Positions 5,311-46,800 of a stretch of DNA of 64,000 nucleotides are shown here, piece by piece. Below the pieces are notes generated by a model. It made no database searches. It was given only the letters and a program-made list of their open reading frames with translations, and was not told where the DNA came from. Within the stretch, counting starts at the first letter, position 1. Every line of letters starts with the position of its first letter. The stretch lies in the sequence record OM632671.1; one strand, written 5' to 3'. This DNA is from Escherichia phage BEU50. The position numbers and the translations under genes were made by a program.

Positions 5311-7368
5311 ATGATTATCGAAACGGCTAAAGAAACGATTATTGGTTCTGGTGGTAAGAGCACAGCATTCACTATTCAAGGCAATAGCAAAGTTTATAAG
5401 ATTTTGTCTAATGACCTTTATACAAACAAAGAATTGGCTTGTGTACGTGAATTAATCACAAACTGTATCGATGGACAAATTCTTAATGGTTGCACTGATA
5501 AGTTTATTGTTCAGGCTCCAGGTCGTTTAGACCCACGTTTTGTAGTTCGAGACTTTGGTCCTGGTATGAGTGATTTCACCATTCGAGGTAATGACGAAGA
5601 GCCAGGAATCTATAACTCATATTTTGCTTCAACTAAAACATCGAGTAATGATTTCATTGGTGGATTCGGACTCGGCTCTAAAGCTCCATTAGCATATACT
5701 GATACGTTTAACATTACTTCTTATCATAATGGTGAAGTTCGTGGTTATGTAATTTATCAAGATGACAGTGGTCCACAAATTAAGCCAACCTTTGTAGATA
5801 AGATGGGCCCTGATGACCGTACGGGTGTAGAAGTAGTTGTGCCTGTTAACCCGGAAGATTTTGAAAAGTTCGCATCTGAAATTGCGTATGTTATGCGTCC
5901 TCTCGGCGATATTGCAGAAGTTCGTGGTGTTAAAGATATCAAATACTTCCCGGAATTCGATGATGTTTATTTAGCCAAGGAAGCTCCATGGGGTGAACGT
6001 GGTAATATCATGGCTGTTTATGGTGGTATTGTATATCCAATCGGAAGTGTTATTAAAGAACAAACATGGATGATGACGCGATGCACTACAGCTTATATCA
6101 AATTCCCTATGGGTGAACTAGATGTAGCCCCGTCTCGTGAAGCATTGTCATTTGATAAACGTACAGTAGCAAATATTCATAAACGTGTTGCAGAAATTGA
6201 TGCAAAATTATTTGCTGAAGATTCTAAGAAATGGATTGATTGTGAATATCCACGTCATGTATTCCGTGAAATCGATTCTCTTGGTTACTCTGCTCGTAAA
6301 TACATGGAAAAAGCCGGTTCTAATATTGAATCACTGAAATATTCTAAAGAACAACTAACTTATTCTGAGTTGTACAAACGTTTTAAAATGGGACCTGAAT
6401 GGTGCAACCTTGGCGTTGTATATGATATCGTTTCAGATCCACGACTTCGTCGTATTCGTGAAAGCGGAAGCTCGTCTGCAACTATTTCAATTAATAGCCT
6501 GCTAGGTATTAGTCGTAAGCATATTGATATTGTTATTGACGATGTGAAAGGCCGCGTACCAATGATGCGTGCTCTGAACGATGCTTTGACTTCCACCGAT
6601 GCATCAACACTCGTTGATAAGGTTCCTTCCGGACGGGGTAGTAGCGTATTATTCATTAACCCGGAAGATGAAGTTGCAATGAAACTTCTGGAACGATTAA
6701 AGGTTATTTTCGCTGGTGATAGCCTTAAATTTTATAAGACCTCTGAAATTCTTGCATTAGTTAAACCATGGATTGAAGTTAAAGAACGTTCATCGCAGCC
6801 TCGTCCTAAATCCCCAAGTGCTCATCGGTTCTTTAAGAATGAAAACGATGTTTGGGTATCAGAAGATCTCTTTATTCCGGCCGGTAAAGCTGATGAGATT
6901 CAAGGTTATGTTGTAATTCGTAATCGTTCTAACGCTGAATGTCTTGACGCAGATAAAGGTTGGTTGAACTATGATTCTAATTTCTTGACTCGTATTGCTG
7001 ATTTGTCAGGTATTAAAGAGTTCACTGTAGTCCGTCCACAGATTGCTAAGAAAGTTCGTAAACTTGGTGAAGTAGAATGCTTGTTCGAAAAATCAATTAA
7101 TGACTATATTACGCTAATTGATAAAGTGGATTATGATGAGTATGTATCACCAAGTCGTAGAGCACAGCCTTATTTGAATCATATTACTCGTAACGAAGAG
7201 CTTAACTTCCTTAGTAAGTATTTTAGCTCTAAGAACAAAGAAATCAGTAAAGACTTTGCAAAACTCTCAACAGTAAATAATCGCTGGGGATGGAATCGAT
7301 TCGCAGGTGCTGATAACAGAGACCTGAACAGGAAGTTAGAATTGTGCTTAAAGAGGACTCTTTTGTAG
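5311..7368 (+). CDS. rIIA: rIIA membrane-associated protein with GHKL ATPase domain
   Basis: ELITNCIDG and RDFGPGM GHKL boxes; N-terminus typical of T-even rIIA; 685 aa (T4 rIIA recalled as about 725 aa). Confidence 0.85.
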
Positions 7369-7619
7369 ACCCAGAAATTTTCTACGGTTTGCGTGCCCGT
7401 GAAATTGAAATTGAGCCACAACCTACAGTTAAAATTGAAGGTGGTCAACACCTGAACGTTAACGTTCTGCGTCGTGAAACTCTGGAAGATGCAGTTAAGC
7501 ATCCGGAAAAATATCCGCAATTGACTATCCGTGTATCCGGTTATGCAGTTCGCTTTAACTCTCTGACTCCGGAACAGCAGCGCGACGTTATCGCTCGTAC
7601 CTTTACCGAGAGTTTGTAA
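7344..7619 (+). CDS. autonomous glycyl radical cofactor-like protein (GrcA/YfiD family)
   Basis: C-terminal glycyl radical motif [29 protein letters not shown]; no in-frame ATG (GTG at 7344); 3' half is GC-rich with host-like codons. Confidence 0.8.
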
Positions 7620-7840
7620 TGGCAAAGATAATTATTGAAGGTTCTGAAGATGTGCTAAATGCTTTCGCCGAGTGGTTTAGTAATTCAGGTGAACAACAAT
7701 TTAATGAAGCGTGGAATATGGGTGATATTGATGGAATTTATCCTACGACAGAAATTTCTGTTCAGGGATATGGCATTCATGAACCTATTCGTTTAGTTGA
7801 ATACGATTTATGTACTGGCGAGGAAGTCAAATATGATTGA
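7619..7840 (+). CDS. hypothetical protein (73 aa)
   Basis: ORF track; ATG overlaps preceding stop. Confidence 0.5.
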   Translation: MAKIIIEGSEDVLNAFAEWFSNSGEQQFNEAWNMGDIDGIYPTTEISVQGYGIHEPIRLVEYDLCTGEEVKYD

Positions 7841-8099
7841 AGATATTAAGGGTTATAAACCACATACCGACGAAAAAATCGGTAAAGTAAATGCTATTAA
7901 AGACGCTGAAGTTCGTTTAGGACTTATCTTTGATGCTTTATACGATGAATTTTGGGAAGCATTTGATAGCTGTGAAGATGATGAACTCGCGAAGAATTAC
8001 GCCGAAAGCCTCGATCAGTTAACTATTGCTAAAACGAAACTCAAAGAAGCAAGTATGTGGGCTTGCCGTGCTGTGTTCCAACCAGAGGAAAAATACTAA
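7833..8099 (+). CDS. hypothetical protein (88 aa)
   Basis: ORF-track frame 7797..8099 trimmed to ATG 7833, which overlaps upstream stop. Confidence 0.45.
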
Positions 8100-8377
8100 T
8101 GGCTCAATTAAGCGCAGGGTTTGGTTATGAGTATTATACTGCCCCTCGTCGTGTATCTGTTGCTCCTAAGAAAATTCAAAGTCTTGATGATTTCCAGGAA
8201 GTAGTCCGTAACGCTTTCCAGGACTATGCACGCTATCTTAAAGAAGATTCACAGGACTGTCTCGAAGAAGATGAAATTGCTTACTATACGCAGCGTCTTG
8301 AACAGCTCAAAAATCTACATGAGGTTCGTGCCGAAGTTTCAAAGTCTATGAATAAATTGATTAGATTTAAAGAATAA
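8099..8377 (+). CDS. hypothetical protein (92 aa)
   Basis: ORF-track frame 8057..8377 trimmed to ATG 8099 (TAATG overlap). Confidence 0.45.
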
Positions 8378-8379
8378 CT

Positions 8380-8409
8380 GTTTACTTTTCCTCTTGACTG
8401 TGGTATAAT
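8380..8409 (+). promoter_or_regulatory. T4-type early promoter candidate (regB)
   Basis: GTTTAC at 8380-8385, TATAAT at 8404-8409, 18-nt spacer, then AAGAGGAG Shine-Dalgarno. Confidence 0.5.
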
Positions 8410-8436
8410 TTTTCTATCAGTTAAGAGGAGAATAAC

Positions 8437-8898
8437 ATGACTATCAACACAGAAGTTTTTATCCGTCGAAATAAGCTTCGTCGTCACTTTGAGTCGGAGT
8501 TTCGTCAAATTAACAATGAGATTCGTGAGGCATCAAAAGCAGCAGGGGTCTCATCGTTTCATCTAAAATATTCTCAGCATCTTCTTGATCGTGCAATTCA
8601 ACGGGAGATTGATGAGACATATGTTTTTGAATTATTCCACAAAATAAAAGACCATGTTTTAGAAGTTAATGAATTCCTGAGTATGCCTCCGCGTCCTGAC
8701 ATTGATGAGGATTTTATTGATGGGGTTGAATACCGTCCTGGACGTTTAGAAATCACAGATGGAAATCTTTGGCTTGGATTTACAGTTTGTAAACCTAATG
8801 CGAAGTTCAAAGACCCGTCGCTTCAATGCAGGATGGCAATTATCAATAGTCGTCGTTTACCAGGAAAGGCTTCTAAAGCAGTAATTAAAACTCAATGA
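8437..8898 (+). CDS. regB: RegB site-specific endoribonuclease
   Basis: 153 aa, N-terminus MTINTEVFIRRNKLRRHFESEF matches T4 RegB family. Confidence 0.85.
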   Translation: MTINTEVFIRRNKLRRHFESEFRQINNEIREASKAAGVSSFHLKYSQHLLDRAIQREIDETYVFELFHKIKDHVLEVNEFLSMPPRPDIDEDFIDGVEYRPGRLEITDGNLWLGFTVCKPNAKFKDPSLQCRMAIINSRRLPGKASKAVIKTQ

Positions 8899-8905
8899 GG
8901 TAAGC

Positions 8906-9451
8906 ATGAGAAAAGCACTACTCGCTGGTCTATTGGCCATTTCAATGATGGCACATAGCTCCGAGCATACTTTCAGTAATGTCCAACTCGATAACATGCG
9001 TTACGCGTATCAATTCGGGGAACAATTTTCTAAGGATGGAAAATATAAAACACACAAAAACATCCACAAGAGCGGATTGGGTCATATAATGGCTGCTATT
9101 TTGTGGCAAGAAAGCTCTGCCGGAGTTAATTTAAAATCTAAACCAAAGCATCACGCCTACGGAATGTTCCAAAATTATTTGCCTACTATGCGAGCGAGAG
9201 TTAAGGAACTTGGTTATAATATGACCGATGCTGAAATAAAAAGAATGTTGAATAAACGATCCAATTCAGCTTCCTGGGCGTACATTGAACTTTCTTATTG
9301 GTTAAATATACATAAGGGCGATATAAGAAAAGCAATATCCTCTTATAATTCGGGATGGAATGTTAAAGCAGGTTCTAAATATGCTTCTGAAGTCCTAGAA
9401 AAGGCTAATTACCTTAAAAATAATAAACTTTTGGAAATAGTAAATGACTAA
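8906..9451 (+). CDS. secreted/periplasmic protein with signal peptide (vs.1-like position)
   Basis: N-terminal signal peptide MRKALLAGLLAISMMAHS; WQESS motif; positional analogue of T4 vs.1. Confidence 0.6.
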   Translation: MRKALLAGLLAISMMAHSSEHTFSNVQLDNMRYAYQFGEQFSKDGKYKTHKNIHKSGLGHIMAAILWQESSAGVNLKSKPKHHAYGMFQNYLPTMRARVKELGYNMTDAEIKRMLNKRSNSASWAYIELSYWLNIHKGDIRKAISSYNSGWNVKAGSKYASEVLEKANYLKNNKLLEIVND

Positions 9452-9785
9452 AATTTTGGTTTTATGTATAGGATTAATTTCATTTTCTGCGTTAGCAGAT
9501 ACATCATATACTGAAATTAGAGAGTATGTAAACCGTACTGCAGCGGATTATTGCGGGAAAAATAAAGCATGCCAAGCTGAATTTGCGCAGAAATTAATAT
9601 ATGCATATAAAGACGGAGAAAGAGATAAATCAAGCAGATACAAAAATGATACATTGTTAAAACGATATGCTAAAAAGTGGAATACCTTAGAATGTTCAGT
9701 TGCGGAGGAGAAAGATAAAGCCGCTTGTCATTCAATGGTTGACCGTTTAGTAGATTCTTATAATCGAGGATTGAGTACTAGATGA
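9444..9785 (+). CDS. small secreted protein with signal peptide
   Basis: Signal peptide MTKILVLCIGLISFSALA; Cys-containing mature part. Confidence 0.5.
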   Translation: MTKILVLCIGLISFSALADTSYTEIREYVNRTAADYCGKNKACQAEFAQKLIYAYKDGERDKSSRYKNDTLLKRYAKKWNTLECSVAEEKDKAACHSMVDRLVDSYNRGLSTR

Positions 9786-10261
9786 TTGTAAAATATATCA
9801 AGGGCGATATTGTCGCCCTATTTCTTCAAGGTAATATTATTGCGCACGGGTGCAATTGCTTCCACACAATGGGCTCTGGCGTAGCAGGTCAATTAGCAAG
9901 AGCCTATCCCAAAATTTTAGAAATAGATAAAACCACTACCGAGTACGGTTCTCGTGATAAATTAGGCGATATGTCTATTGTTTTTAAACATAGTCCTACG
10001 GGATTTGGTATATGCTATAACCTGTATACACAATACGAACCGGGTCCTAATCTTGATTATGGTGCTTTAGTAAACTGCATGATAGAATTAAATCTACAGG
10101 CAGAAACCCTTTTGTTTAAACCAGTAATTTACATTCCACGCATAGGTTGCGGTATTGCTGGTGGTGATTGGGATAAGGTTTCTAAATTAATCGACATGTT
10201 TACTCCTGATATTGATTTAATAGTGGTGGATTATGAAAGTACATTACCCGCATCCGTTTGA
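9782..10261 (+). CDS. macro-domain protein (ADP-ribose binding/processing)
   Basis: AHGCNCFHTMGSGVAGQLA and IPRIGCGIAGGDW resemble macro-domain Gly-rich phosphate-binding loops. Confidence 0.6.
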   Translation: MIVKYIKGDIVALFLQGNIIAHGCNCFHTMGSGVAGQLARAYPKILEIDKTTTEYGSRDKLGDMSIVFKHSPTGFGICYNLYTQYEPGPNLDYGALVNCMIELNLQAETLLFKPVIYIPRIGCGIAGGDWDKVSKLIDMFTPDIDLIVVDYESTLPASV

Positions 10262-10445
10262 TCCTAAAAACAAAGTGGAAATTATTCGTCAATGGGAACG
10301 CATTTGCCGTACTAAATGCCCAATTAATAGTCCACATGATGTAGATAAAGACTATATTGGAACATTCGTTGAATATACCTTTATTGATAGGAAAGGTCGT
10401 AAACAACATGTAGAAGAATATTGTTTAAAGGTTACATGGTTATGA
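10233..10445 (+). CDS. hypothetical protein (70 aa)
   Basis: ORF track only. Confidence 0.4.
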   Translation: MKVHYPHPFDPKNKVEIIRQWERICRTKCPINSPHDVDKDYIGTFVEYTFIDRKGRKQHVEEYCLKVTWL

Positions 10446-10648
10446 GCCAAACTAGTATTCTTAAAAATGCCCATTGTGAAAAGTGTAAGTGGCCGATTGT
10501 TTTTGCTTTATGTAATGATGAAATGGCTTGTGATTTCGATTATTGGTGCTATTGTTCTAATAAAGGATGCATCAATCATAAAGGTGAAGGATTTTATTCA
10601 GGATTTTATCCTTATCCTGATTTCGTTAAAGAAGGTAAACCGAAATGA
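10421..10648 (+). CDS. Cys-rich hypothetical protein
   Basis: ORF track; multiple CxxC pairs; start uncertain. Confidence 0.4.
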   Translation: MFKGYMVMSQTSILKNAHCEKCKWPIVFALCNDEMACDFDYWCYCSNKGCINHKGEGFYSGFYPYPDFVKEGKPK

Positions 10649-11009
10649 ATAGTTTTGAGTTACAATATGAAGTGTTACGTGAGCTTGATAATTTAATTGA
10701 ACTCGCTGTCAATAAAGGTTTTGCCATTGGAATCGGTCAAAAAGATACTGGTCATTTAACTATGGAAATATTTAAGCAAAAGCGAATTATTTTAAAACTC
10801 CTGGAAATTAATATATGAGTCTGAGTAAAGAATAAAAAGATAAATTGTTTGAGCTTATCCATGAACTTCTAGATGAGCATGCAGAAGCAAACACCTTTTA
10901 TGATGAATACGGCCCGCTATCTCCCGAACAGCAAGAAGAATTTGCTGATCGGTTTGATAAGAAAGAAAACGAATTAATAGCTTATGTGAATATGCTTTAA
11001 GAAGGTGAT

Positions 11010-11591
11010 ATGGCGAGTTTAATTTTTACTTACGCAGCAATGAATGCTGGAAAATCTGCTTCTCTTTTGACTGCTGCACATAATTATAAAGAACGCGGAA
11101 TGAGTGTATTAGTTCTTAAGCCTGCTATTGATACTCGCGATTCTGTCTGTGAAGTCGTTTCTCGCATTGGAATTAAGCAGGAAGCGAATATTATTACAGA
11201 TGATATGGATATTTTCGAGTTCTATAAATGGGCTGAAGCACAAAAAGATATTCATTGCGTATTTGTAGATGAAGCTCAGTTTTTAAAAACTGAACAGGTG
11301 CATCAATTAAGTCGAATTGTTGATACATATAATGTTCCTGTTATGGCTTATGGATTAAGGACTGATTTCGCTGGAAAATTGTTTGAAGGTTCTAAAGAAC
11401 TTTTAGCGATTGCAGATAAACTTATTGAACTAAAGGCAGTTTGTCATTGCGGCAAAAAAGCGATTATGACAGCTCGATTAATGGAAGATGGAACACCAGT
11501 TAAAGAAGGTAATCAAATCTGTATTGGTGATGAAATTTATGTTTCTTTGTGTAGAAAACATTGGAACGAATTAACTAAAAAGCTCGGTTAG
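11010..11591 (+). CDS. tk: thymidine kinase
   Basis: 193 aa; P-loop AAMNAGKS; matches recalled T4 Tk essentially end to end. Confidence 0.92.
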   Translation: MASLIFTYAAMNAGKSASLLTAAHNYKERGMSVLVLKPAIDTRDSVCEVVSRIGIKQEANIITDDMDIFEFYKWAEAQKDIHCVFVDEAQFLKTEQVHQLSRIVDTYNVPVMAYGLRTDFAGKLFEGSKELLAIADKLIELKAVCHCGKKAIMTARLMEDGTPVKEGNQICIGDEIYVSLCRKHWNELTKKLG

Positions 11592-11633
11592 TGCAAAAGT
11601 TATAAATAGGTTTATCTAACTAAAGGGGTATAT

Positions 11634-11846
11634 ATGCTACAATTAACTGAAAAGCAACTTCGCAATCTTACTGTTCTTCAATTAGATGAAATTCGTAGGG
11701 AAGTTGGAAATATCATTTCAGCTTTGCGTCGAGAAGTATCACTCAACCAATCTCCGGCAGACTATACTAGATTGCGAAATTTTGAAAAATACCTTGATAA
11801 AGTTAAGGCCGTGCATCGGCATAAAGTAAATACAGGACAAAAATGA
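11634..11846 (+). CDS. hypothetical protein (70 aa)
   Basis: ORF track; SD AAAGGGG upstream. Confidence 0.5.
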
Positions 11847-11858
11847 TAGGAGGCCTTT

Positions 11859-12152
11859 ATGGCCTTAAAAGCAACGGCACTATTTGCCATGCTAGGATTA
11901 GCGTTTGCTTTATCTCCATCGATTGAAGCGAATGTCGATCCTCATTTTGATAAATTTATGGAATCTGGTATTAGACACGTTTATATGCTTTTTGAAAATA
12001 AAAGCGTAGAATCATCTGAACAGTTCTATAGTTTTATGCGAACGACTTATAAAAATGACCCGTGCTCTTCTGATTTTGAATGTATAGAGCGAGGCGCGGA
12101 GATGGCACAATCATACGCTAGAATTATGAACATTAAATTGGAGACTGAATGA
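11859..12152 (+). CDS. rI: RI lysis-inhibition regulator (antiholin), signal-anchor protein
   Basis: 97 aa with N-terminal signal-anchor MALKATALFAMLGLAFALS; size and position next to tk match T4 rI. Confidence 0.7.
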   Translation: MALKATALFAMLGLAFALSPSIEANVDPHFDKFMESGIRHVYMLFENKSVESSEQFYSFMRTTYKNDPCSSDFECIERGAEMAQSYARIMNIKLETE

Positions 12153-12535
12153 AATTCAGCGACTTTTCACAAAGTGGAAAACCTTCAAAGGCAGATGAAT
12201 ACTTAGGTTTATTAATGGCTGCACAAGCTTATTTTCATTCTGCGCATTTTGAAACTAAAAGTTATGCTAGACACAAAGCATACGATTTTATTTTCTCCGA
12301 GTTGCCAGATTTGATTGATAAATTTGGTGAGCAATATTTGGGGTATTCTGGTAGAAAATACACACCTTCAATTCCAGATGCTAGTAAACTTCCTACCGAC
12401 ACAATTAAAATGATTGATCGCATACTAGACCAATCTAACAGCATTTATAAAGAAATGCCTCCAGCCATTCAAAGCACGATAGATGATATCACTGGGATGT
12501 TTTATCAGAGTAAATATCTTCTTTCCCTCGAATAA
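12149..12535 (+). CDS. hypothetical protein (128 aa)
   Basis: ORF track; overlaps rI stop. Confidence 0.55.
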
Positions 12536-12539
12536 CGTT

Positions 12540-12563
12540 AGTCTCCTTCGGGAGACTTTTTTC
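12540..12563 (+). terminator. rho-independent terminator candidate
   Basis: AGTCTCC-TTCG-GGAGACT hairpin followed by TTTTTT. Confidence 0.6.
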
Positions 12564-15925: not shown

Positions 15926-16399
15926 ATGTTATTGACTGGCAAATTATACAAAGAAGAAAAACAAAAATTTTATAATGTACAAAACGGTAAATGCTTAATT
16001 TGCCAACGAGAACTAAATCCTGATGTTCAAGCTAATCACCTTGACCATGACCATGAATTAAATGGACCAAAAGCAGGAAAGGTACGTGGATTGCTTTGTA
16101 ATCTCTGCAATGCTGCAGAAGGTCAAATGAAGCACAAATTTAATCGTTCTGGCTTAAAGGGTCAAGGTGTTGATTATCTTGAATGGTTAGAAAATTTACT
16201 TACTTATTTAAAATCCGATTACACCCAAAATAATATTCACCCTAACTTTGTTGGAGATAAATCAAAGGAATTTTCTCGTTTAGGAAAAGAGGAAATGATG
16301 GCCGAGATGCTTCAAAGTGGATTTGAATATAATGAATCTGACACCAAAACACAATTAATAGCTTCATTTAAGAAGCAGCTTAGAAAGAGTTTAAAATGA
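15926..16399 (+). CDS. 49: endonuclease VII (Holliday junction resolvase)
   Basis: 157 aa; zinc-binding CLIC...C..C; matches T4 gp49 family. Confidence 0.88.
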   Translation: MLLTGKLYKEEKQKFYNVQNGKCLICQRELNPDVQANHLDHDHELNGPKAGKVRGLLCNLCNAAEGQMKHKFNRSGLKGQGVDYLEWLENLLTYLKSDYTQNNIHPNFVGDKSKEFSRLGKEEMMAEMLQSGFEYNESDTKTQLIASFKKQLRKSLK

Positions 16400-17217
16400 A
16401 TGTAGTATATAAACTATCATTTATTAATAGAATTAATGCTAAAACCCCACCATATTATTACATTGGAAGTAAAACCAATTGCACTTTTGATGGAACGAAT
16501 ATTATTGATAAAAATGGTAAATTTTATTATTCGTCTTCGTCATCTTCTGAATTTCAAAAAGCCTTATTGAAAGAAACGCCGAAAGTTGAAATATTATATT
16601 TTCAATTAGTCGGAGATGAACAAATAACTAGCATTGAAGCTGAATTTCAAAAGAATATAGAAAAAGATGTATGGAATAAAGAGTATTTTAATTTAGCATA
16701 TGCTGATGGCAAATTTACGACATATGGTATTTCTCCTTCTAAAGAAACTAGAGAAAAGCAATCAATAACCATGATTAAAAGAAATCGTAATAAAGGCAAA
16801 AATCATGGATTTTATGGAAAGCATCATACTAATTTAGCTAGAAAGAAAATATCAGAAGCTTCTAAAAAATACTGGAAAGAAAATCCACATCGTGGATTTT
16901 CGCATACAAAGGAAGCTAAAATTAAAATTGGAATTTCATCTTCTATCAGGCATAAAGGAAGTGGAAATCCGATGTATGGTGTAAAACCTTGGAAAACTCC
17001 GAGCGCAATTAAATCTGGTACTTGTATATTATGGTTAAAATACGCAGAAATTTTATATGATTATTTAAGTCCAGATTTTAAAAGTAAATCATCTATTTTT
17101 GCGGATTTAAACTTACCGAAATTTAGAATTGATAATTTCATCAAAAGGTTTAAAATGGGTTGGAACCCATATTTAGACGAAGAATTTCAAAAGGATAAAT
17201 TAGAATTATGTCTTTAG
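16396..17217 (+). CDS. GIY-YIG homing endonuclease (seg-like, free-standing)
   Basis: N-terminal VYKL...PYYYIGS GIY-YIG module; downstream basic helix repeats; start and stop overlap neighbouring genes. Confidence 0.75.
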   Translation: MNVVYKLSFINRINAKTPPYYYIGSKTNCTFDGTNIIDKNGKFYYSSSSSSEFQKALLKETPKVEILYFQLVGDEQITSIEAEFQKNIEKDVWNKEYFNLAYADGKFTTYGISPSKETREKQSITMIKRNRNKGKNHGFYGKHHTNLARKKISEASKKYWKENPHRGFSHTKEAKIKIGISSSIRHKGSGNPMYGVKPWKTPSAIKSGTCILWLKYAEILYDYLSPDFKSKSSIFADLNLPKFRIDNFIKRFKMGWNPYLDEEFQKDKLELCL

Positions 17218-18205
17218 AAAAAGATGTTTTAAATTTTATTTCAAATAAAGATAAAGAATTAAATACAGAAAACGCCAACAAAGATTCTCGCGTCTTTCCA
17301 ACAAAAAGAGATTTAATGGCCGGTATTGTTTCTAAACATATCGCTTGTCGTATTCTTCCAAGTCATATTGTAAATGCCCATAATGTTGGATTAATTCATT
17401 TTCATGATTTAGATTACAGTATATCATTGCCTTTTACTAATTGCTGTTTAGTAGATTTAAAAGGAATGCTTGAGAACGGGTTTAAGCTCGGTAATGCACA
17501 GATTGAAACTCCTAAATCAATCGGTGTTGCTACTGCAATTATGGCACAAATTACTGCACAGGTTGCTTCTCACCAATATGGCGGAACTACATTTGCTAAT
17601 GTCGATAAAGTACTTTCTCCTTATGTTAAACGCACCTATGCAAAACATATCGAAGACGCAGAAAAATGGCAAATCGCCGATGCGTTAAATTATGCTCAAT
17701 CTAAAACAGAAAAAGACGTATACGATGCATTCCAAGCTTATGAATATGAAGTAAATACTCTCTTTAGTTCAAACGGACAGACTCCTTTTGTAACAATTAC
17801 ATTTGGTACAGGAACTGACTGGACTGAACGAATGATTCAGAAAGCAATTCTGAAAAATCGTATTAAAGGTCTTGGTCGTGATGGGATAACTCCTATTTTC
17901 CCTAAGCTTGTTATGTTTGTTGAAGAAGGTGTTAATCTTTATAAAGACGATCCGAACTATGATATTAAGCAGCTTGCTCTAGAGTGTGCAAGCAAAAGAA
18001 TGTATCCTGATATTATTTCAGCTAAGAACAATAAAGCTATCACTGGTTCATCTGTTCCTGTTTCTCCAATGGGTTGCCGTAGTTTCTTGGGCGTATGGAA
18101 AGATTCGACTGGTAATGAAATTCTTGATGGACGTAATAATCTTGGCGTTGTAACACTGAATCTTCCTCGCATCGCGTTAGATTCTTATATTGGAACACAG
18201 TTCAA
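17208..18205 (+). pseudogene. nrdD: anaerobic ribonucleotide reductase NrdD, 5' portion only (truncated near codon 333)
   Basis: N-terminal two-thirds of class III RNR; frame then runs into reverse complement of gp37 start; no glycyl radical C-terminus. Confidence 0.8.
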
Positions 18206-18340
18206 TCCTGAGTCATCTTTTGTGAAAATTGTTTTATCTTTTAAGTTTATAGCCAATTCACCTTCGGCTAATACTGAAGCAGCAGGACGTTGACCTGCAG
18301 TTTTGCTTCTTTTAAATTGTATTTGTTTTAAAGTAGCCAT
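18206..18340 (-). pseudogene. 37: distal long tail fibre gp37, N-terminal 44-codon fragment
   Basis: Minus-strand [45 protein letters not shown] matches T4 gp37 N-terminus, then diverges and stops within 6 codons. Confidence 0.7.
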
Positions 18341-20185: not shown

Positions 20186-23100
20186 TTATTCAACCCATTC
20201 AAATTTAACAGTTTTATTCACTGGGTCAGGAATAATGCGAACATTACCAATTCGTAAGAAATCACGAATAGTAAGATTACCTATTATTCCATTATCAGAT
20301 GGGATTGCTCCTATATCCGAAGGTTGAGGAGGATTACCTCCATCGAATACCTGAACAAAACTTGACCAAGAGTTTTTGGTTTTCTGCCATGTACGTGTCC
20401 AGCGAGTGGTACGTGCTTCTGGGGTCGTTGGATAAGTAATCCAATCTTGGTAAAGTGAATCAAGTGTGTTACCAAACTGAGTCAATGTACCAGGAGATTT
20501 AACTTCTTCACCGCGTTCTAAATATGGAAGTCCAGTCACTTCATTAGTTTTTTCAACCATTTTAAAATAACCCGGGAACTGGTTATAAGTGGCTGAATCA
20601 TTAATATCGATTGACCAGAATCCTACAGTATCAGATGTTGGCGCACGGGTATATAAATCAGATGTTTTAACACCTTGAGAACGAATTCTCGAGTTAACAG
20701 TTAAACCGCCTGAACTTATAGTAGCACCTTTTGCAATGATTAAGCTTTCACCAATCGTTACTTGGCCAGATGCATTATTAATAGATAAAGGACGTAATCC
20801 ATTAAATCCGCCAGTTTGATCACCCGATGCAGTAAGCATAAAATTCGTTACTGACCCATCATTGCGAACAATGAAACCATAATTTCCGTTAATAGCACGG
20901 AAAGCATTTGCGCTTCGAGAAATAATTTCACCAGTTGCAGTGACTGAATTACCAAATGTTGCTACACCATTTGCATTCAATGTTCCTGAAGCATTAACAT
21001 TTATCGGTGTTACTGTACCGTTGATATTAAATGTTATATTTCCAGCTTTATTACGCTGAGAATAAAAATGACTAGACGTTTCATCACTAACTTCAAATAC
21101 GGTAGAACGTGTTGTGTCTGATTCCCCACTAAATTGATTTCCCCACACTCTGACTGTCATCGTTTGAGCCGGGTTTGTTCCAGTTTGAGGTCCTTTCTCA
21201 AAAATCAATCGAGTTGCCGTTCCAGTATTAGAAATAGTTAATGTACTATTTGCTGAAACTGATCCACCGAATGTAGCAGTACTAGATGATACAAGAGGGG
21301 CACTCAGATTCGTTTGTTGGGTTAAGGTTAGTGAACCATTAACTGTTTGTGCAATGTCCCTACGAATGAACTGGAGCGAATCTAGACCATCTAATAAATT
21401 ACTATCTACAGCTTTTGCTTTTAATGGCAAATAATTTGCTAATACGCGATTTAATTCATATGGTGATACTGCATAACCATTTTTCTCATATGATTCTAAT
21501 GGTTGTGTTGAACCTACCGTATCATTACCAACGAATGTAATTGAACCAGATGAAGTTTTAACAAACCCTCTTATCAGAGTAGTTGCTGCCCAAGTTGGTT
21601 CACTCTGCACAATCCATTTTAAATTTTTTGGAGATACAGCAGTATTTGCTGATGTTCCAGTCACAGTTTCAGACTGAGTTGCAACTTTAATAACACCTTC
21701 CTGTGCTTCAGTAGATTTAGTACCTAAAAGCTTTTTAGGAGTTATTAAAACATTATCTAATGTTCCTGCAGCAGCTTCAACTTGTGTAGCTACACGAAGT
21801 GTACCACGCTGTGTCTCATTTGCTTCAAGAATATTAAGTGTATAATGGTCCCAGAGAGTTCCTGATTCAACTAATCCAGATAGAGCAACAACAGAAGTAC
21901 GATCAGTACTATTAAATCTAGTTTTAATTTTTAATGGTGTAGAGATGCGAGTATCGTCGACGCCTGCGTCGAATTCAACTTGCGTAGCAATTTCAGCTAT
22001 ACCACTTAAACTTTCAGTTGCTCTACGGTCATTTAAAGTTTTAGGAGTGACTGCACGAGTATAGTCAGTTCCTGTGTTAACTTCACTTTGCGTAGCAATT
22101 TCAATTAAACCAATTCTTCCATCAGTTGATGTCTTTTTATGTAACGTTTCTGGCGTTACAACCGCATTTGCCCATCCTTCTTGGCTTTGTCCAGCAATTA
22201 CTTCACTTTCAACTGCTAAAATTACTGCGCCTTGTTGCGTTGGAGTAGCTTTATACTGATCCAAAGCTTTAGGTGAAACAACTAAATTATTAGTGTTTTT
22301 ATTATAAACATTCGTACCATTTAATTCACGGCTAGAAGCTGGAGTAGCTCCTGCAGTAGATACATAAGTTACAATACCAGATAATGATTCAGAACCTTGG
22401 CGAGCTTGAAGCTTTTTAGGAGTGATGATTGTAGTATCATCAGTACCTGTATTAGTTTCCTGCTGCGTAGCAATTTCAGCGACACCTCTACGAGTTTCTG
22501 TAGCAGTTCTTTCATTCAGCTTTTTAGGAGTGATGATAAGGTCATCTGCAAAAGAGAATGTGGTGTTCTGATTCACTTGAGCAGTAGTTGCTATTCTTGC
22601 AATACCTCTGCGAGTTTCTGTAGCAGTACGATTAGCTAACGTTTCTGGAGTAATTGCTAATTCTTTTTGTGGAGAATTTTCTAAATCAGCATTTGCTTGA
22701 GCTTGCGTAGCTAAAGCAATTACGCCTAATCTTGCTCTAGTAGAAGCATTTAAAGAGTCTACTCTTTCTACAGTTGGAACGTTTTGCTGTACAACCCAGC
22801 ATTTTCCATCAGAATCTTCTATATAAGCAAGTTGTAAAACTGGAACATAATTAGTTTCACCGTTAAAAACTAATTCTTGAACTGTTACCCATTCAGCTTC
22901 AGGCGGATATTCTGAACGTTTTGGGAATTGCAGCAATTGAACTGAGGAAGCAATTTTATCTTCACCTGCAGCTTTGATTTTAACTGTTTGTCCTTTTCTC
23001 ATGTAATTCATGGAAATTTTAACAGTATCACCAACAGAAATATCAGTCGGAAGCTGAAGTTCAATTGTTTGGGTTGTTCCATTATTCGCGCCAAATACCA

Positions 23101-24055
23101 TGACTTCTTCATTTGGACGAATATTAGAATTAGTTGTTATAATGCGTAAACGTGCTTTACTATCCCCGTCAAACAATCTCCACAATTTCTCATTATCATC
23201 AAACATCAAGAAACCGTCAATCGATGTACGGCCTTCAATGGAATGAGTTCCAACTTCTTGCACTGACGTTGTTTCATCATATGTCGTAACAATTGTATGA
23301 TAAAGTGGATTTAATTTATCTAAATCAACGAAATTAATGATATCTCCATGATTGGCAAATCTTGGAAGCTTAACATTAATCGGCGCGGCAGAAGTAAATC
23401 TACGTACGATAAAATCATTAGATTGTGCTTGATATGCAGTCGATGGAGTAACAATCGCAGCTTCTCTGCTATAATCAGCAATATACATTTGCCACAAACG
23501 ATTATTAAAAATGAATACCATCTGTGACTTTGGATGAGTCATTAAAACTGAACGTACCTGTTCACCTCTAAAATTGACAATACTCTGATTTGAAGAATTT
23601 ATTTTAACCTGATTTATGCCAGGTTTTCCACCGATATCTTGAATTATTACGGTTTCTCCATCAAGCGGAGAAGGTGGTAAAGTAAACTCAATGTCATTGC
23701 CAACTGATGTATCTACTGAAATTGCTTCTCCGGATTTTAATTGATATGGTCCAGATGATACGGTTGTATATACAGCATCAGTACGTAATGCTTTCCAACG
23801 AATTCTATTAAAATTTCCAGCAGGTTTTGGAATATTATCCGTTGCTGCCCAAAAACGATTATTATAAATGATTACAAAATCTTTTAAATATCCACGAGTT
23901 GGATCATATTGCTGAACTGTGTTTTCTTGAATTAAGTAATCAACGTTAACACCGTCAGTTCCTACGGTACGATCAGCTAAAGCTACGTTGATTATTTTAT
24001 CGCCACCTGCGTCCAGACCATCTTCTGCTCTGAACTTTCTTTTAATCTCGGCCAT
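20186..24055 (-). CDS. 34: long tail fibre proximal subunit gp34
   Basis: 1289 aa; N-terminus MAEIKRKFRAEDGLDAGGDKIINVALADRTVGTDGVNVDYLIQ and C-terminus KTVKFEWVE match T4 gp34. Confidence 0.92.
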   Translation of the reverse strand: MAEIKRKFRAEDGLDAGGDKIINVALADRTVGTDGVNVDYLIQENTVQQYDPTRGYLKDFVIIYNNRFWAATDNIPKPAGNFNRIRWKALRTDAVYTTVSSGPYQLKSGEAISVDTSVGNDIEFTLPPSPLDGETVIIQDIGGKPGINQVKINSSNQSIVNFRGEQVRSVLMTHPKSQMVFIFNNRLWQMYIADYSREAAIVTPSTAYQAQSNDFIVRRFTSAAPINVKLPRFANHGDIINFVDLDKLNPLYHTIVTTYDETTSVQEVGTHSIEGRTSIDGFLMFDDNEKLWRLFDGDSKARLRIITTNSNIRPNEEVMVFGANNGTTQTIELQLPTDISVGDTVKISMNYMRKGQTVKIKAAGEDKIASSVQLLQFPKRSEYPPEAEWVTVQELVFNGETNYVPVLQLAYIEDSDGKCWVVQQNVPTVERVDSLNASTRARLGVIALATQAQANADLENSPQKELAITPETLANRTATETRRGIARIATTAQVNQNTTFSFADDLIITPKKLNERTATETRRGVAEIATQQETNTGTDDTTIITPKKLQARQGSESLSGIVTYVSTAGATPASSRELNGTNVYNKNTNNLVVSPKALDQYKATPTQQGAVILAVESEVIAGQSQEGWANAVVTPETLHKKTSTDGRIGLIEIATQSEVNTGTDYTRAVTPKTLNDRRATESLSGIAEIATQVEFDAGVDDTRISTPLKIKTRFNSTDRTSVVALSGLVESGTLWDHYTLNILEANETQRGTLRVATQVEAAAGTLDNVLITPKKLLGTKSTEAQEGVIKVATQSETVTGTSANTAVSPKNLKWIVQSEPTWAATTLIRGFVKTSSGSITFVGNDTVGSTQPLESYEKNGYAVSPYELNRVLANYLPLKAKAVDSNLLDGLDSLQFIRRDIAQTVNGSLTLTQQTNLSAPLVSSSTATFGGSVSANSTLTISNTGTATRLIFEKGPQTGTNPAQTMTVRVWGNQFSGESDTTRSTVFEVSDETSSHFYSQRNKAGNITFNINGTVTPINVNASGTLNANGVATFGNSVTATGEIISRSANAFRAINGNYGFIVRNDGSVTNFMLTASGDQTGGFNGLRPLSINNASGQVTIGESLIIAKGATISSGGLTVNSRIRSQGVKTSDLYTRAPTSDTVGFWSIDINDSATYNQFPGYFKMVEKTNEVTGLPYLERGEEVKSPGTLTQFGNTLDSLYQDWITYPTTPEARTTRWTRTWQKTKNSWSSFVQVFDGGNPPQPSDIGAIPSDNGIIGNLTIRDFLRIGNVRIIPDPVNKTVKFEWVE

Positions 24056-41229: not shown

Positions 41230-41437
41230 ATTAATCCAGAAATTGTTTGGTACGGAAATGATTGAAGTTACTTATCGTGTAACCGACGTTTTTCCATATT
41301 ACGCGGAAAACCGTTTAGAACCATACGTTACGTCAATTAAAATGCCTAAAAATGACAGAAATTTATCTATCGAAGACCGTATACCTGGATACGGACATTG
41401 GGCTGATGTTGAAATTATAAGTGTTAAAGATGTCTGA
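41219..41437 (+). CDS. hypothetical protein (72 aa)
   Basis: ORF track. Confidence 0.45.
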   Translation: MLNKLIQKLFGTEMIEVTYRVTDVFPYYAENRLEPYVTSIKMPKNDRNLSIEDRIPGYGHWADVEIISVKDV

Positions 41438-41888
41438 ATTAGAAATAAGAAGTAATTTCAAATGGCCGTCATGTGCATTAAGTAACTTTGCTCAATGGCC
41501 TTTTGTTATGGATGGTATTCAATTCGGAGGTCTTGAAGGATTTCTCCAAGGATGTAAGGTGAAAAATGTTGAACAACAAAGACGTATATTTGGGTTGTCT
41601 GGATTGGCTGCACAGCAAGCTGGAAGGTCTTACGCAAGAGCTCAGGACCGTGGGACTCTCTTCTGGTTCGGAGTTCCATTTTCAAGATACTCCGAAGCGT
41701 GGAAAGAATTATACACAAATGCATATTTTGAAGCCGCGATCCAAAACAAGGGGTTTCGTGATGCCTTACAAGCCTCTAAAGGAAAAATTTTGAAGCACAG
41801 CATGGCCAGCCACCTAACAAAAGATGATACAATACTAACTGAAGATGAATTTATTGACGTGTTAAACCTATTAAGAGACTCTTTATGA
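41421..41888 (+). CDS. NADAR-domain protein (YbiA-like, ADP-ribose-processing family)
   Basis: LSNFAQWPFVMDGIQFGGLEGFLQGCK parallels YbiA FSNFAAWPIKVDG...E.YFQAQK signature. Confidence 0.6.
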   Translation: MLKMSELEIRSNFKWPSCALSNFAQWPFVMDGIQFGGLEGFLQGCKVKNVEQQRRIFGLSGLAAQQAGRSYARAQDRGTLFWFGVPFSRYSEAWKELYTNAYFEAAIQNKGFRDALQASKGKILKHSMASHLTKDDTILTEDEFIDVLNLLRDSL

Positions 41889-42709: not shown

Positions 42710-42979
42710 ATGTTTGTAGTTCATGATATTACAGATGGCAAAAACACCACACGTGACTACGGTCATGTTAACATGTTCTTTCGAGACTGGCCATTGTTTC
42801 GTTCAGTAAAAGACGCAGAAATATTTAAAGAGTGTGTTGAACAAGGGTTCATCTACATTTCAGAATATTATGTTGAAGGTCTCGGTAAATGGATTACAAC
42901 TTATCAGAAAACGCTGAAATCGCTTCTAGATGAAGTGGCTTATAATAGAACCGTAACCAAAATCGAGGACATCAAATGA
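42710..42979 (+). CDS. hypothetical protein (89 aa)
   Basis: ORF track. Confidence 0.5.
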   Translation: MFVVHDITDGKNTTRDYGHVNMFFRDWPLFRSVKDAEIFKECVEQGFIYISEYYVEGLGKWITTYQKTLKSLLDEVAYNRTVTKIEDIK

Positions 42980-44469
42980 TTTTAGATATTTTAAACCAAA
43001 TAGCTGCGATCGGTTCTACTAAAACAAAACAAGAAATCCTTAAGAAAAATAAGGACAACAAATTACTTGAACGTGTGTATCGTTTAACATATGCACGTGG
43101 TATCCAGTATTATATTAAGAAATGGCCAGGACCAGGTGAAAGGTCCCAAGCATATGGTCTTCTTGAATTAGATGACATGTTGGATTTTATTGAGTTCACA
43201 TTAGCCACTCGTAAACTCACCGGTAATGCCGCAATTAAAGAGCTCATGGGTTATATCGCTGACGGTAAACCTGATGATGTAGAAGTCCTTCGTCGTGTAA
43301 TGATGCGCGACCTTGAAGTAGGTGCTTCAGTGTCTATCGCGAATAAGGTGTGGCCTGGACTTATTCAATTGCAACCACAGATGTTAGCATCTGCATATGA
43401 TGAGAAATTGATTACTAAAAATATTAAATGGCCTGCATTTGCTCAATTAAAAGCCGATGGTGCTCGTTGTTTCGCTGAAGTTCGCGATGATGGTGTTCAA
43501 TTCTTTTCTCGTGCTGGTAATGAATACCATGGTCTTACCCTATTAGCAGATGAATTAATGGAAATGACTAAAGAAGCTCGTGAAAGACATCCTAATGGGG
43601 TTTTAATCGACGGTGAATTAGTTTACCATTCATTTGATATTAAAAAGGCTGTGAGCTCAGGAAATGACCTGTCGTTCTTATTTGGTGATAATGAAGAATC
43701 CGAAGAAGTACAAGTTGCGGACCGTAGCACTTCAAACGGTTTAGCAAATAAATCTCTTCAAGGGACTATTTCTCCTAAAGAAGCTGAAGGTATGGTTCTT
43801 CAAGCCTGGGACTATGTTCCTTTAGATGAAGTCTATTCTGATGGCAAAATTAAAGGTCAGAAATACGATGTTCGTTTTGCTGCTCTTGAAAATATGGCTG
43901 AAGGCTTTAAACGAATTGAGCCAATTGAAAATCAGTTAGTTCGTAATCTTGACGAAGCTAAAGTGGTTTATAAAAAATATGTTGACCAAGGTCTTGAAGG
44001 TATTATCCTTAAAAACCGTGATTCATATTGGGAAAACAAACGTTCTAAGAACCTAATTAAATTTAAAGAAGTTATTGATATCGCTTTAGAAGTTGTAGGA
44101 TACTATGAACACTCTAAAGACCCTAACAAATTAGGTGGTGTCGAACTCGTATCACGTTGTCGTCGTATTACAACCGATTGTGGTTCAGGGTTTAAAGATA
44201 CAACTCATAAAACAGTTGATGGTGTAAAGGTTCTTATTCCTTTAGATGAGCGACATGATTTGGACCGTGAACGATTAATGACCGAAGCTCGTGAAGGTAA
44301 ATTGATTGGACGTATTGCTGATTGTGAATGCAATGGTTGGGTTCATTCTAAAGGACGTGAAGGCACTGTAGGTATTTTCCTCCCAATTATTAAAGGGTTC
44401 CGTTTTGATAAAACAGAAGCGGATTCGTTTGAAGACGTATTTGGACCACGGTCCCAGACAGGTTTATAA
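42976..44469 (+). CDS. 30: ATP-dependent DNA ligase
   Basis: 497 aa; ligase adenylation motif region KADGARC; T4 DNA ligase family. Confidence 0.92.
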   Translation: MILDILNQIAAIGSTKTKQEILKKNKDNKLLERVYRLTYARGIQYYIKKWPGPGERSQAYGLLELDDMLDFIEFTLATRKLTGNAAIKELMGYIADGKPDDVEVLRRVMMRDLEVGASVSIANKVWPGLIQLQPQMLASAYDEKLITKNIKWPAFAQLKADGARCFAEVRDDGVQFFSRAGNEYHGLTLLADELMEMTKEARERHPNGVLIDGELVYHSFDIKKAVSSGNDLSFLFGDNEESEEVQVADRSTSNGLANKSLQGTISPKEAEGMVLQAWDYVPLDEVYSDGKIKGQKYDVRFAALENMAEGFKRIEPIENQLVRNLDEAKVVYKKYVDQGLEGIILKNRDSYWENKRSKNLIKFKEVIDIALEVVGYYEHSKDPNKLGGVELVSRCRRITTDCGSGFKDTTHKTVDGVKVLIPLDERHDLDRERLMTEAREGKLIGRIADCECNGWVHSKGREGTVGIFLPIIKGFRFDKTEADSFEDVFGPRSQTGL

Positions 44470-44712: not shown

Positions 44713-46800
44713 ATGTCTGAACAATTAAATGAAGTGTTTGAATCTGAAGGCAGTCTTCCTGTCGTCAATTTGAACCCTAAAGCTAAAGTTCCACAAGTCT
44801 GGAAAATTGGTGATATCGATACAAATATTGTAGTTCGTTTATTCTCTTACCTTTCCGAAGGCGACGCTGTAAAACAAGTTAAACTTGGCGACAAATACGC
44901 TCATGTTGTTATTATGAGTCTGTCTGAAAAGGGTAATCTCGCTGAATTGAAAAATGGCCTTGGTCCTGCTCCTATTGATGCAATCAACACCATTTTCAAT
45001 ACAGTATATGAACAAGTTAAAGCTCTTCGTATGGATGCAGTTCTGTTCCGATTCCCTACCAAGAAATTGAAAGGACGTGGACAACAGCTTCAAACTCTTC
45101 TTGCTCGTTTAGTTTCTACTAAAACCGGTGGTCGTTTTAAAGTATTGTCGGCAATGTATCAATTCACAGGTAAACACACCTATGTGATGATGGTTCGTAA
45201 AAATGCCAACATTGAAGATATTAAAGGCATCCCTAACATTAACACAGAGTTGTACACGAAAGTAGATTCTGATGTTGGCGAAGTTTATGTGAGTAAAAAG
45301 ACCGGCGAAAAAGTCACCAAAGAAACGGCTATCGCTGGTTCTATTGCTGCTGTAGAAGAAAAACGTAAAGATAAGCCTGTTATTGCTCGTACTAAAATTT
45401 CTCGTCGTGCTATTGCCGCAAGCCAATCTTTAGAAGCTGACCGCCAAGAAGGTGAGTTATTCCAGAAATACGAAAATTCTGCTAAAGAAGTTAGTGGCCC
45501 GGCTACAGCCGAATTACTTCCTGAAGCATATGAAATCGTACTAGCCCAAGCATCATCCACAGCAAAAGGCACTTTAGTTGCTGATATCGAAAATAAGATT
45601 TATAATCGTATTGATGAATCCTTTAGATTTGCTGATGAAGTTTCTTATGGTAGTGTTATTAAGCCAACTTTAGAAAAGTTTGCTAAGAAAATTAAAACTG
45701 AAAAAACAACATCTGTTAAAGCATTAGCTGCTTTTGTTGAAGCTGCAAACGAAATTGCGGACTCTATTAAAGACGAATGGTTTGAAGATTTTAGACGTGA
45801 TAATTTCCAACTGGCCGACGATGTTTTAGCTGAAGTATCTGAAAAAACTTGGAAACAACGTAAATCAGCGTTCTTGTCTAATGTGATGTATACTTATGCA
45901 CGAGAATCGGCTAGAGGCACCTTTAATATAACAATGAATCGGGACCCTAAACAATACTCTGTTGCTGAAAAACGAGCTATTCGCGAATATGCCTCTTCTG
46001 CGTATACCGATATCAATAATATGTTGTTAGGTCGTTATAAACCAGATTTTTACGATGTTGCAGATGAAGATGAAGTTAAACGCGCTATTGATGGTCTTGA
46101 TTCGGCGTTTTTAAATGGAGACCGTTTACCTGAAGGACTAACGTTATATAGAGCTCAGTCTATCAGAATGCCTATTTACGAAGCAATGGTTAAAAATAAG
46201 GTATTCTACTTCAGAAACTATGTTTCCACTTCACTAGCTCCTATTATTTTCGGTGGGTTTAAAGAGAACGTTGCCCTTGGACTTGCTCCTGAAGAAGTTC
46301 GCAAAGAGCTTAACATTGACAATAATGACGAAGGTGTTACCATTTCTCCTAGTCAAGTAAGAACAGCTATGCATGCGCCAGAACAAATCCGTGTTAACGT
46401 TGGATGGGCTATTGATGGCGCCCATAAAGTTAACGTGATTTATCCAGGACAGTTGAGTAATCACCCTAATGAGCAAGAAATTATTTTGCCTAGAGGCATT
46501 CTCTTGCAGATAAATAAAATTACAGATGCGTCATCTGACACCGGTGCAGGTTTAGAATCCAACCTTAAATTTATTCAAGCTGAAGTCATGTCCTCGGACC
46601 AGTTGGACGAAGCTGTCATTTACGATGGTGATGTTCTCATGGAAACAGGCGAGGTAGTTGCTATGACGGGTGAAATCGAATCAGATGAGCCGGTATCTTT
46701 TGCCTCATTTGTAGAAAAAACTAGTGCACCTAAAGGTTTGAAATTGTTAGCATCTTTAATGGATTTAGAATCAGTTCCGTTTAAATTTATCCAAGGATAG
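44713..46800 (+). CDS. alt: ADP-ribosyltransferase Alt (virion-packaged)
   Basis: 695 aa; N-terminus MSEQLNEVFESEG and overall T4 Alt architecture. Confidence 0.8.
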   Translation: MSEQLNEVFESEGSLPVVNLNPKAKVPQVWKIGDIDTNIVVRLFSYLSEGDAVKQVKLGDKYAHVVIMSLSEKGNLAELKNGLGPAPIDAINTIFNTVYEQVKALRMDAVLFRFPTKKLKGRGQQLQTLLARLVSTKTGGRFKVLSAMYQFTGKHTYVMMVRKNANIEDIKGIPNINTELYTKVDSDVGEVYVSKKTGEKVTKETAIAGSIAAVEEKRKDKPVIARTKISRRAIAASQSLEADRQEGELFQKYENSAKEVSGPATAELLPEAYEIVLAQASSTAKGTLVADIENKIYNRIDESFRFADEVSYGSVIKPTLEKFAKKIKTEKTTSVKALAAFVEAANEIADSIKDEWFEDFRRDNFQLADDVLAEVSEKTWKQRKSAFLSNVMYTYARESARGTFNITMNRDPKQYSVAEKRAIREYASSAYTDINNMLLGRYKPDFYDVADEDEVKRAIDGLDSAFLNGDRLPEGLTLYRAQSIRMPIYEAMVKNKVFYFRNYVSTSLAPIIFGGFKENVALGLAPEEVRKELNIDNNDEGVTISPSQVRTAMHAPEQIRVNVGWAIDGAHKVNVIYPGQLSNHPNEQEIILPRGILLQINKITDASSDTGAGLESNLKFIQAEVMSSDQLDEAVIYDGDVLMETGEVVAMTGEIESDEPVSFASFVEKTSAPKGLKLLASLMDLESVPFKFIQG

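Follow-up and report, generated by a model that had tools for sequence, protein, structure and literature searches.

A divergent allele of the macro-domain gene tk.4 (adfM) in Escherichia phage BEU50 DNA and its predicted role against DarTG2

Introduction

The tk.4 orthologs of T4-like phages were matched to the A1pp/macro domain in 2006, and the term 'phosphatase' in the databases is the name of that domain (PMC1524935). A HIDEN-SEQ transposon screen of T4 on a host expressing DarTG2 returned tk.4 as the single significant gene. A clean T4 tk.4 knockout was sensitised to DarTG2, and tk.4 received the new name adfM (anti-DarT factor Macrodomain). In the same work, T4 Tk.4 was likened to the macrodomain of DarG from M. 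tuberculosis, and the enzymatic removal of ADP-ribose from DNA was inferred by the authors. The published basis for the function of T4 Tk.4 is thus genetics together with structural similarity (bioRxiv 10.1101/2025.11.20.689424). The adfM result closes the gap left by the AdfN study, in which T4 without adfA and adfN stayed resistant to DarTG2. All T-even phages tested by the LeRoux laboratory were described as DarTG2-resistant (PMC11257639).

Gp104 of phage PhiKZ has also been named AdfM. In vitro, it clears the second T of TNTC of ADP-ribose, and its activity is lowered by the N23A substitution (PMC13309987). Thymidine-linked ADP-ribose on ssDNA is a substrate of SCO6735, which hydrolyses it faster than DarG or TARG1 do and also protects cells against DarT. 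Gln85 of SCO6735 lies at the position of K80 of DarG and K84 of TARG1; the Q85A and Q85E variants are inactive and N27S is nearly so. SCO6735 strongly prefers DNA over protein. Macrodomains of the TARG1 class can use some protein ADP-ribose as substrate. Inhibition of DarT persists in catalytically dead versions of SCO6735, DarG and TARG1 and is strongest for SCO6735 (PMC9411070). The hydrolysis of thymidine-ADP-ribose by SCO6735 was confirmed elsewhere with synthetic substrates.

Here, these systems are compared with a locus found in 64,000 nucleotides of DNA from Escherichia phage BEU50 (sequence record OM632671.1), a stretch called the window below. The original prediction, made from the DNA letters, was a macro-domain protein. 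The feature was correctly recognised and is already known as T4 tk.4/AdfM.

Results

The tk.4 locus

The ORF is an intact frame of 159 codons from ATG to TGA (Table 1). Its ATG shares the ATGA of 9782-9785 with the stop codon of vs, and its 3' end has 29 nt in common with tk.3. The gene order in the window (regB, vs.1, vs, tk.4, tk.3, small ORFs, tk, rI.1, rI) is that of T4. The same vs - tk.4 - tk.3 arrangement is present in OE5505 and PBM-1, and the 3.3 kb around tk.4 match hundreds of T4-like (Tequatrovirus) genomes at 98-99.6% identity. Therefore, the ORF, which fills the slot between vs and tk.3 in the T4-type early gene string, is the ortholog of T4 tk.4. Its product aligns with T4 Tk.4 (155 aa) over 155 aa at 58% identity without gaps (E=1e-70). 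Of 50,697 phage records, about 2,790 contain a homolog of tk.4. The exact same protein is called 'macro domain protein', 'phosphatase' or 'RNase III inhibitor' in GenBank.

The records of Shigella phages SHFML-11 and SHFML-26 (protein P0002) start the gene at Met30, which gives a 130-aa annotation. The 159-aa start is supported because the invariant residues H22, G23 and N25 lie upstream of Met30, and the shorter version would delete the catalytic His22 and Asn25.

A sigma-70-like promoter match was found upstream of regB, and the identical promoter-like sequence precedes regB of T4. This site, a consensus match only and of a kind that is not enriched in the region, is likely where the regB-vs.1-vs-tk.4-tk.3 string begins, whose ORFs overlap or abut. 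The hairpin near the start of tk.4 scored terminator-like, but it was rejected as a terminator since the 81 nt around it fold no more stably than shuffled versions do (z = -1.5). It is probably a by-product of the conserved KGDIVAL codons. The allele divergence described below starts directly 3' of it.

Table 1. Features of the window discussed in the text, with their positions and, for T4 counterparts, protein identity to T4.
Feature	Position	Strand	Basis or remark	Protein identity to T4
vs.3				100%
Sigma-70-like promoter match upstream of regB	8381..8409	+	TTTACT-17-TATAAT with TG, 10/12 matches	
regB	8437..8898		window gene-order list	99%
vs.1	8906..9451		window gene-order list	99%
vs	9444..9785		window gene-order list	97%
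tk.4/adfM ortholog, 159-aa single-domain macrodomain protein (stop included)	9782..10261	+	ORF list, Pfam, T4 homology, synteny, AF2	58%
8-bp GC-rich hairpin AGGGCGATATTGTCGCCCT	9801..9819	+	20 nt inside tk.4 coding sequence, identical in T4	
Divergent allele cassette, DNA identity to T4 40-80% (flanks 94-100%)	about 9820..10290	+	pairwise DNA alignment, 50-column sliding identity	
Residues 22-36, HGCNCFHTMGSGVAG: His22, Asn25, then phosphate-binding loop 1 (MGSGVAG)	9845..9889	+	invariant columns, T4 alignment	
Residues 80-84, NLYTQ, end of strand beta 74-84	10019..10033	+	profile and HMMER alignments	
Residues 119-130, PRIGCGIAGGDW: phosphate-binding loop 2	10136..10171	+	family and TARG1 alignments	
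tk.3	10233..10445		window gene-order list	91%
75-aa Cys-rich 'phage zinc binding domain' protein, first of second replaced block	10421..10648		PF23895, 5e-29	
Second replaced block after tk.3 (T4 tk.2 and tk.1 replaced by three small ORFs)	10437..11000	+	comparison with T4	
tk	11010..11591		window gene-order list	99%
rI.1				100%
NUMOD3-containing homing-endonuclease-like ORF	16396..17217	+	overlaps start of NrdD fragment	
361-aa N-terminal fragment of NrdD, anaerobic ribonucleotide reductase	17208..18293	+	cut off at 18206 junction	
gp30.3/AdfN ortholog, NADAR anti-DarTG1 factor	41421..41888	+	Pfam Phage_30_3, 5e-69	
Alt-like ORF, 695 aa, ADP-ribosyltransferase exoenzyme domain at residues 413-610	44713..46800	+	PF03496, 6e-28	

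Macro domain and fold

The Pfam Macro profile (PF01661) matched the product at 32 bits (E=1.3e-7; gathering score 22 bits) over profile positions 2-117, that is 116 of 118, and PHROG 335 matched at 1e-71. The AlphaFold2 (AF2) model, built from an alignment of 51 homologs, has a mean pLDDT of 94.5 and a pTM of 0.89. When the model was compared with the PDB by Foldseek, the best match was human TARG1 (E=9e-10, TM 0.72-0.83), followed by yeast Poa1p, Bacteroides BT1257 and the DarG macrodomains of T. aquaticus and M. tuberculosis (E 1e-9 to 1e-7). The top 50 PDB matches were all macrodomains or macro-derived designs, with TM 0.6-0.83. Model and matches agree on a three-layer alpha/beta/alpha macro fold, and this agreement goes far beyond chance. 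The two Gly-rich phosphate-binding loops, MGSGVAG (30-36) and GCGIAGG (122-128), are conserved in the 51 homologs and align with the corresponding loops of TARG1, SCO6735 and BT1257. The ORF is a genuine macro-domain gene. The original prediction had relied on the Gly-rich stretches HGCNCFHTMGSGVAG and IGCGIAGGDW; both are present, at residues 22-36 and 121-130, and the profile search, the model and the presence of both loops of the ADP-ribose cleft bear out the macro-domain call.

The only NCBIfam match was antitoxin_DarG (NF048014) at 27.7 bits, to the macrodomain part only, against an equivalog cut-off for DarG of 250 bits. The product is not DarG, because this 159-aa single-domain protein has no C-terminal DarT-binding domain and its gene has no darT neighbour, being surrounded by vs, tk.3 and small phage ORFs.

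The labels 'A1pp phosphatase' and 'RNase III inhibitor/YmdB' suggest a different function, in which the tk.4 product would act on small metabolites as an ADP-ribose-1''-phosphate phosphatase or an O-acetyl-ADP-ribose deacetylase. Phosphatase is the label in both GenBank and PHROG, and yeast Poa1p is among the closest solved relatives also by sequence (E=2e-9). His22 and Thr29 align with H23 and S30 of Poa1p, positions that were mutated in deposited structures. However, the annotation was taken from the domain name only (PMC1524935), and in the structural comparison E. coli YmdB follows far behind (Foldseek rank 30). A metabolite enzyme would also leave the DarTG2 phenotype of the T4 ortholog unexplained. 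To our knowledge, there is no source of ADP-ribose-1''-phosphate in T4 infection. Such a function is considered very unlikely.

Active-site residues

The residues H22, G23, N25, C26, G33, A35, D49, G62, N80, Y82, Q84, P119, G122, G124 and W130 are invariant in the 51 homologs. The stretch around loop 1 is identical to that of T4 Tk.4 (16/16 residues). His22 and Asn25 of the family align with H24 and N27 of SCO6735 and with H32 and S35 of TARG1. In SCO6735, N27 locks the active-site Gln. In the family profile alignment, T83-Q84 stands opposite T83-K84 of TARG1, and Gln84 pairs with K84 with high posterior probability. The HMMER alignment of the family member P0094 places its N..TQ against N..GQ of SCO6735 (Q85) and against the lysine of N..PTK in M. 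tuberculosis DarG. Judged from the aligned sequences, the invariant Gln84 occupies the position of the catalytic Lys in DarG (K80) and TARG1 (K84). The register around this Lys/Gln position was unreliable in a MAFFT three-way alignment, and the hhalign alignment to PhiKZ gp104 showed a two-residue shift there, in a low-confidence stretch. The register was settled by the HMMER alignments to TARG1 and, through P0094, to SCO6735 and M. tuberculosis DarG.

Loop 2 of SCO6735, PRIGCGLAGGTW, is nearly identical to PRIGCGIAGGDW of the window protein, and PRIGCG[IL]AGGxW is common to both. In a PDB search with the C-terminal 105 residues, loop 2 alone was aligned for SCO6735. Ala126 of this loop stands opposite the catalytic Asp125 of TARG1. 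Since the His/Asn/Gln set and loop 2 are as in SCO6735, the Tk.4 family is SCO6735-like, of a Gln type and not of the DarG type. His22, Asn25 and Gln84 correspond to the active-site set of SCO6735, a proven thymidine-ADP-ribose DNA hydrolase. In the alignment, the DNA-positioning lysines K34 and K89 of SCO6735 are not conserved in the window protein, which has Ser32 and Gly88 there. These lysines tune the activity of SCO6735 and are not family-defining.

The divergent allele

The DNA identity to T4 is 98-100% up to about 9819 and is back to 94-98% after about 10290. The tk.4 region in between is a sharply bounded, cassette-like replacement. The differences between the two proteins are concentrated in residues 64-79 (4/16 identical) and 131-155 (6/25), while NLYTQ is unchanged. 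Of the phage records, 312 have the window-type allele (>=90% identity), 224 the T4-type allele and 158 a third class with about 83% identity to T4. The window-type tk.4 is the commonest allele among sequenced T4-like (Tequatrovirus) phages. The BASEL phage Bas35 (WilhelmHis) has the window-type allele region at 98.8% identity, and the copy of Dhakavirus VR5 (73% identical) is among the nearest non-identical relatives. Wherever a residue is conserved to at least 80% across the family, the window allele agrees with it; the T4 allele departs at four such positions. Three of these lie in loop 2 (A126G, G127K and D129N), which reads PRIGAGIGKGNW in T4. By this measure, the window allele fits the family consensus better than the T4 allele, which is the less typical one.

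The distribution of the differences bears on another possibility, namely that the tk.4 product neutralises DarT2 or another ADP-ribosyltransferase (ART), for example one that targets RNA, chiefly through binding to the toxin or its product and not through catalysis, or that the window allele is specialised for a different ART than that of T4 AdfM. The divergence lies mostly outside the active-site loops, and discrete, sharply bounded allele classes would fit co-evolution with a protein partner. Inhibition of DarT by dead SCO6735, DarG and TARG1 is independent of catalysis (PMC9411070). On the other hand, recombination between T-even genera equally yields discrete classes, as the VR5 copy illustrates, and the invariance of the catalytic-site residues across the family speaks for purifying selection on an enzyme. 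Binding of the toxin or an allele-specific range is the only rival with some indirect support, and it is judged unlikely.

The tk.4 alleles may also be viewed as a swappable counter-defence cassette. Their classes would then correspond to different toxins of the host (DarT2 lineages or further nucleic-acid ADP-ribosyltransferases) or would evade host factors that recognise the phage macrodomain. This idea is based on the discrete 58%-identical classes, the sharp recombination borders, the invariant catalytic residues and the rewritten surface segments 64-79 and 131-155, and we regard it as rather doubtful. If it is true, the protection spectrum of the window-type allele would differ from that of T4 AdfM.

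Composition of the window

The first part of the window (positions 1-7347, gp39 topoisomerase to rIIA) shows 98% identity to phages of the RB69 type (Mosigvirus). The block at 7348-18206 is of the T4 type (Tequatrovirus); it begins inside vs.6 (T4 residues 31-120 only), ends inside nrdD and is without most of the nrdC.1-nrdC.11 block. The block is followed by minus-strand tail-fibre genes (gp34, 20186..24055) and, further on, by nrdA, ligase, alt, uvsW and hoc. Among the 50,697 phage records, none is collinear with the window and none spans the junctions 7347/7348 or 18206/18207. The window has the appearance of a chimeric assembly or of genome blocks joined into a composite. Since it is not one collinear stretch of a genome, presence in the same window is no evidence of genomic proximity. 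A window collinear with T4, in which ModA/ModB would be expected over Alt, was ruled out by uvsW, hoc, gp34, nrdA, ligase, the Alt-like ART and the non-native junctions.

Besides tk.4, a second block after tk.3 is replaced relative to T4 (Table 1). Its second ORF (57 aa) has no family match, and its third encodes a 51-aa DUF7438 protein that is 52% identical to T4 Tk.2. T4 tk.1 was without a match. The N-terminus MSELEIRSNF of the AdfN ortholog is that of the T4 adfN primer sequence in PMC11257639. The true start of this gene is likely the ATG inside the listed GTG ORF, at Met4.

The Alt-like ORF lies directly downstream of the DNA ligase gene (42976..44469) and fits T4 Alt. The original prediction pointed to Alt in the same window and proposed that the macrodomain could tune the ADP-ribosylation by the phage itself. 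An Alt-like ART is indeed encoded there, but it is 35 kb away from tk.4, across a patchwork of non-adjacent genome blocks. In its broader form, this proposal holds that the tk.4 product erases or tunes the marks of Alt, ModA and ModB on RNA polymerase and other host proteins, or the RNAylation by ModB. All T-even phages have Alt/ModA/ModB, and some protein ADP-ribose is within reach of the TARG1 class (PMC9411070). However, tk.4 is near tk/regB and unlinked to alt in real T-even genomes, and the proximity in the window comes from non-native junctions. The linkage also differs. The T4 enzymes Alt, ModA and ModB attach ADP-ribose to protein arginine, whereas, in the studies considered here, the activities described for the TARG1/DarG/SCO6735 class concern Glu/Asp-linked ADP-ribose on protein and thymidine-linked ADP-ribose on DNA. 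The DNA preference of SCO6735 is a further point against a protein substrate (PMC9411070). The only phenotype found for T4 tk.4 is DarTG2 sensitivity, and a literature search for a link of Tk.4 to Alt/Mod or RNAylation found none. With this mismatch of linkage and no phenotype pointing there, tuning of Alt is highly improbable.

Discussion

The best explanation is that the tk.4 product removes the ADP-ribose added by DarT2 from phage ssDNA through catalysis of the SCO6735 type, and we consider this quite probable. It is supported by the macro fold, by the synteny and full-length homology to T4, by the DarTG2 phenotype of T4 tk.4, by the invariant H22/N25/Q84 and by the activity of SCO6735. Further support comes from Bas35, which carries the window allele region, together with the reported DarTG2 resistance of the T-even phages tested. 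Also in favour are the sole NCBIfam match to antitoxin_DarG, the loop 2 held in common with SCO6735, the in vitro activity of the equally acidic PhiKZ AdfM, and the agreement of the window allele with the family consensus at positions where the experimentally validated T4 allele departs from it. The fold, the orthology, the active-site set and the allele structure were obtained in this analysis. The DarTG2 role of T4 tk.4 and the hydrolysis of thymidine-ADP-ribose by SCO6735 and PhiKZ AdfM are from the literature. We infer that the 58%-identical window allele would act as T4 AdfM does, by an SCO6735-type mechanism.

According to this mechanism, the protein would probably be made early in infection, within the regB-vs-tk.4 string. 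It would bind ADP-ribose on N3 of thymidine in single-stranded phage DNA, a mark written by the host toxin DarT2 at TNTC motifs. Hydrolysis of the glycosidic bond would release ADP-ribose and restore a replicable template. Gln84, held by Asn25, may orient the substrate or the transition state so that an activated water can attack, in a manner other than the lysine type of DarG and TARG1. With its own copy of the antitoxin activity, the phage would escape the abortive defence by DarTG2. The original prediction had also suggested the reversal of a host defence based on ADP-ribosylation, and this part is supported through the T4 ortholog, whose knockout is DarTG2-sensitive (bioRxiv 10.1101/2025.11.20.689424).

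Several points count against the removal of DarT2 marks: the identity to T4 Tk.4 of 58%, Ser32/Gly88 in place of K34/K89 of SCO6735, and the shifted register to PhiKZ AdfM. The acidic pI of the window protein (5.03) was considered as an argument against DNA binding and dropped, because the biochemically active PhiKZ AdfM has practically the same value (5.05). Other linkages may also be possible for the class, such as protein Glu/Asp, RNA/DNA phosphate ends and ADP-ribose-1''-phosphate.

Both antitoxin activities exist as orphan copies in T-even phages, the macrodomain AdfM against DarTG2 and the NADAR protein AdfN against DarTG1, and both are encoded in the window. The modest additions of this analysis are the Gln-type active site and the divergent, cassette-like allele together with the atypical nature of the T4 allele. 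They refine an existing question and do not open a new one. Since the commonest allele differs from that of T4 and the site is of the Gln type, conclusions on specificity and mechanism drawn from T4 or DarG need to be checked on the window allele.

Comparison with known systems

Within the PDB, the best matches by structure and by sequence are human TARG1/OARD1 (4j5r) and Bacteroides BT1257 (2afc/2fg1). BT1257 has the N..Q motif in common with the window protein, and also GCGLAGGKW. TARG1 differs at its catalytic residues K84 and D125, which are Q84 and A126 in the window protein. The DarG macrodomains (T. aquaticus 5m31/5m3e, M. tuberculosis 5m3i) share their fold class with the window protein, for which the same substrate, T-ADP-ribose on ssDNA, is predicted. 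However, DarG has the catalytic Lys80 instead of Gln84, carries a C-terminal DarT-binding domain and adjoins darT.

PhiKZ gp104 is likewise a phage-encoded, stand-alone and acidic macrodomain that counters DarTG2, and it has the conserved Asn (N23, corresponding to N25). It differs in its DarG-type FPTK lysine, its low identity of about 21% (hhalign probability 96.5) and its import into the phage nucleus. The name AdfM therefore covers two different macrodomain subtypes, T4 Tk.4 and PhiKZ gp104.

SCO6735 of Streptomyces coelicolor (PDB 5e3b) corresponds to the window protein in H24/N27/Q85 (H22/N25/Q84), in PRIGCG[LI]AGGxW and in being a stand-alone domain. It is an orphan anti-DarT enzyme of the Gln-type, ALC1/TARG1-like kind. 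In contrast, it is encoded by a bacterial chromosomal, DNA-damage-inducible gene and is distant in sequence (phmmer E=8.5e-8).

T4 Tk.4, that is AdfM, shares the vs - tk.4 - tk.3 locus, the length class, the full-length homology, loop 1 and NLYTQ with the window protein. The window protein differs in having four additional C-terminal residues, in the 29-nt overlap of its gene with tk.3 and in keeping the consensus-like GCGIAGGDW in loop 2, where T4 has the derived GAGIGKGNW.
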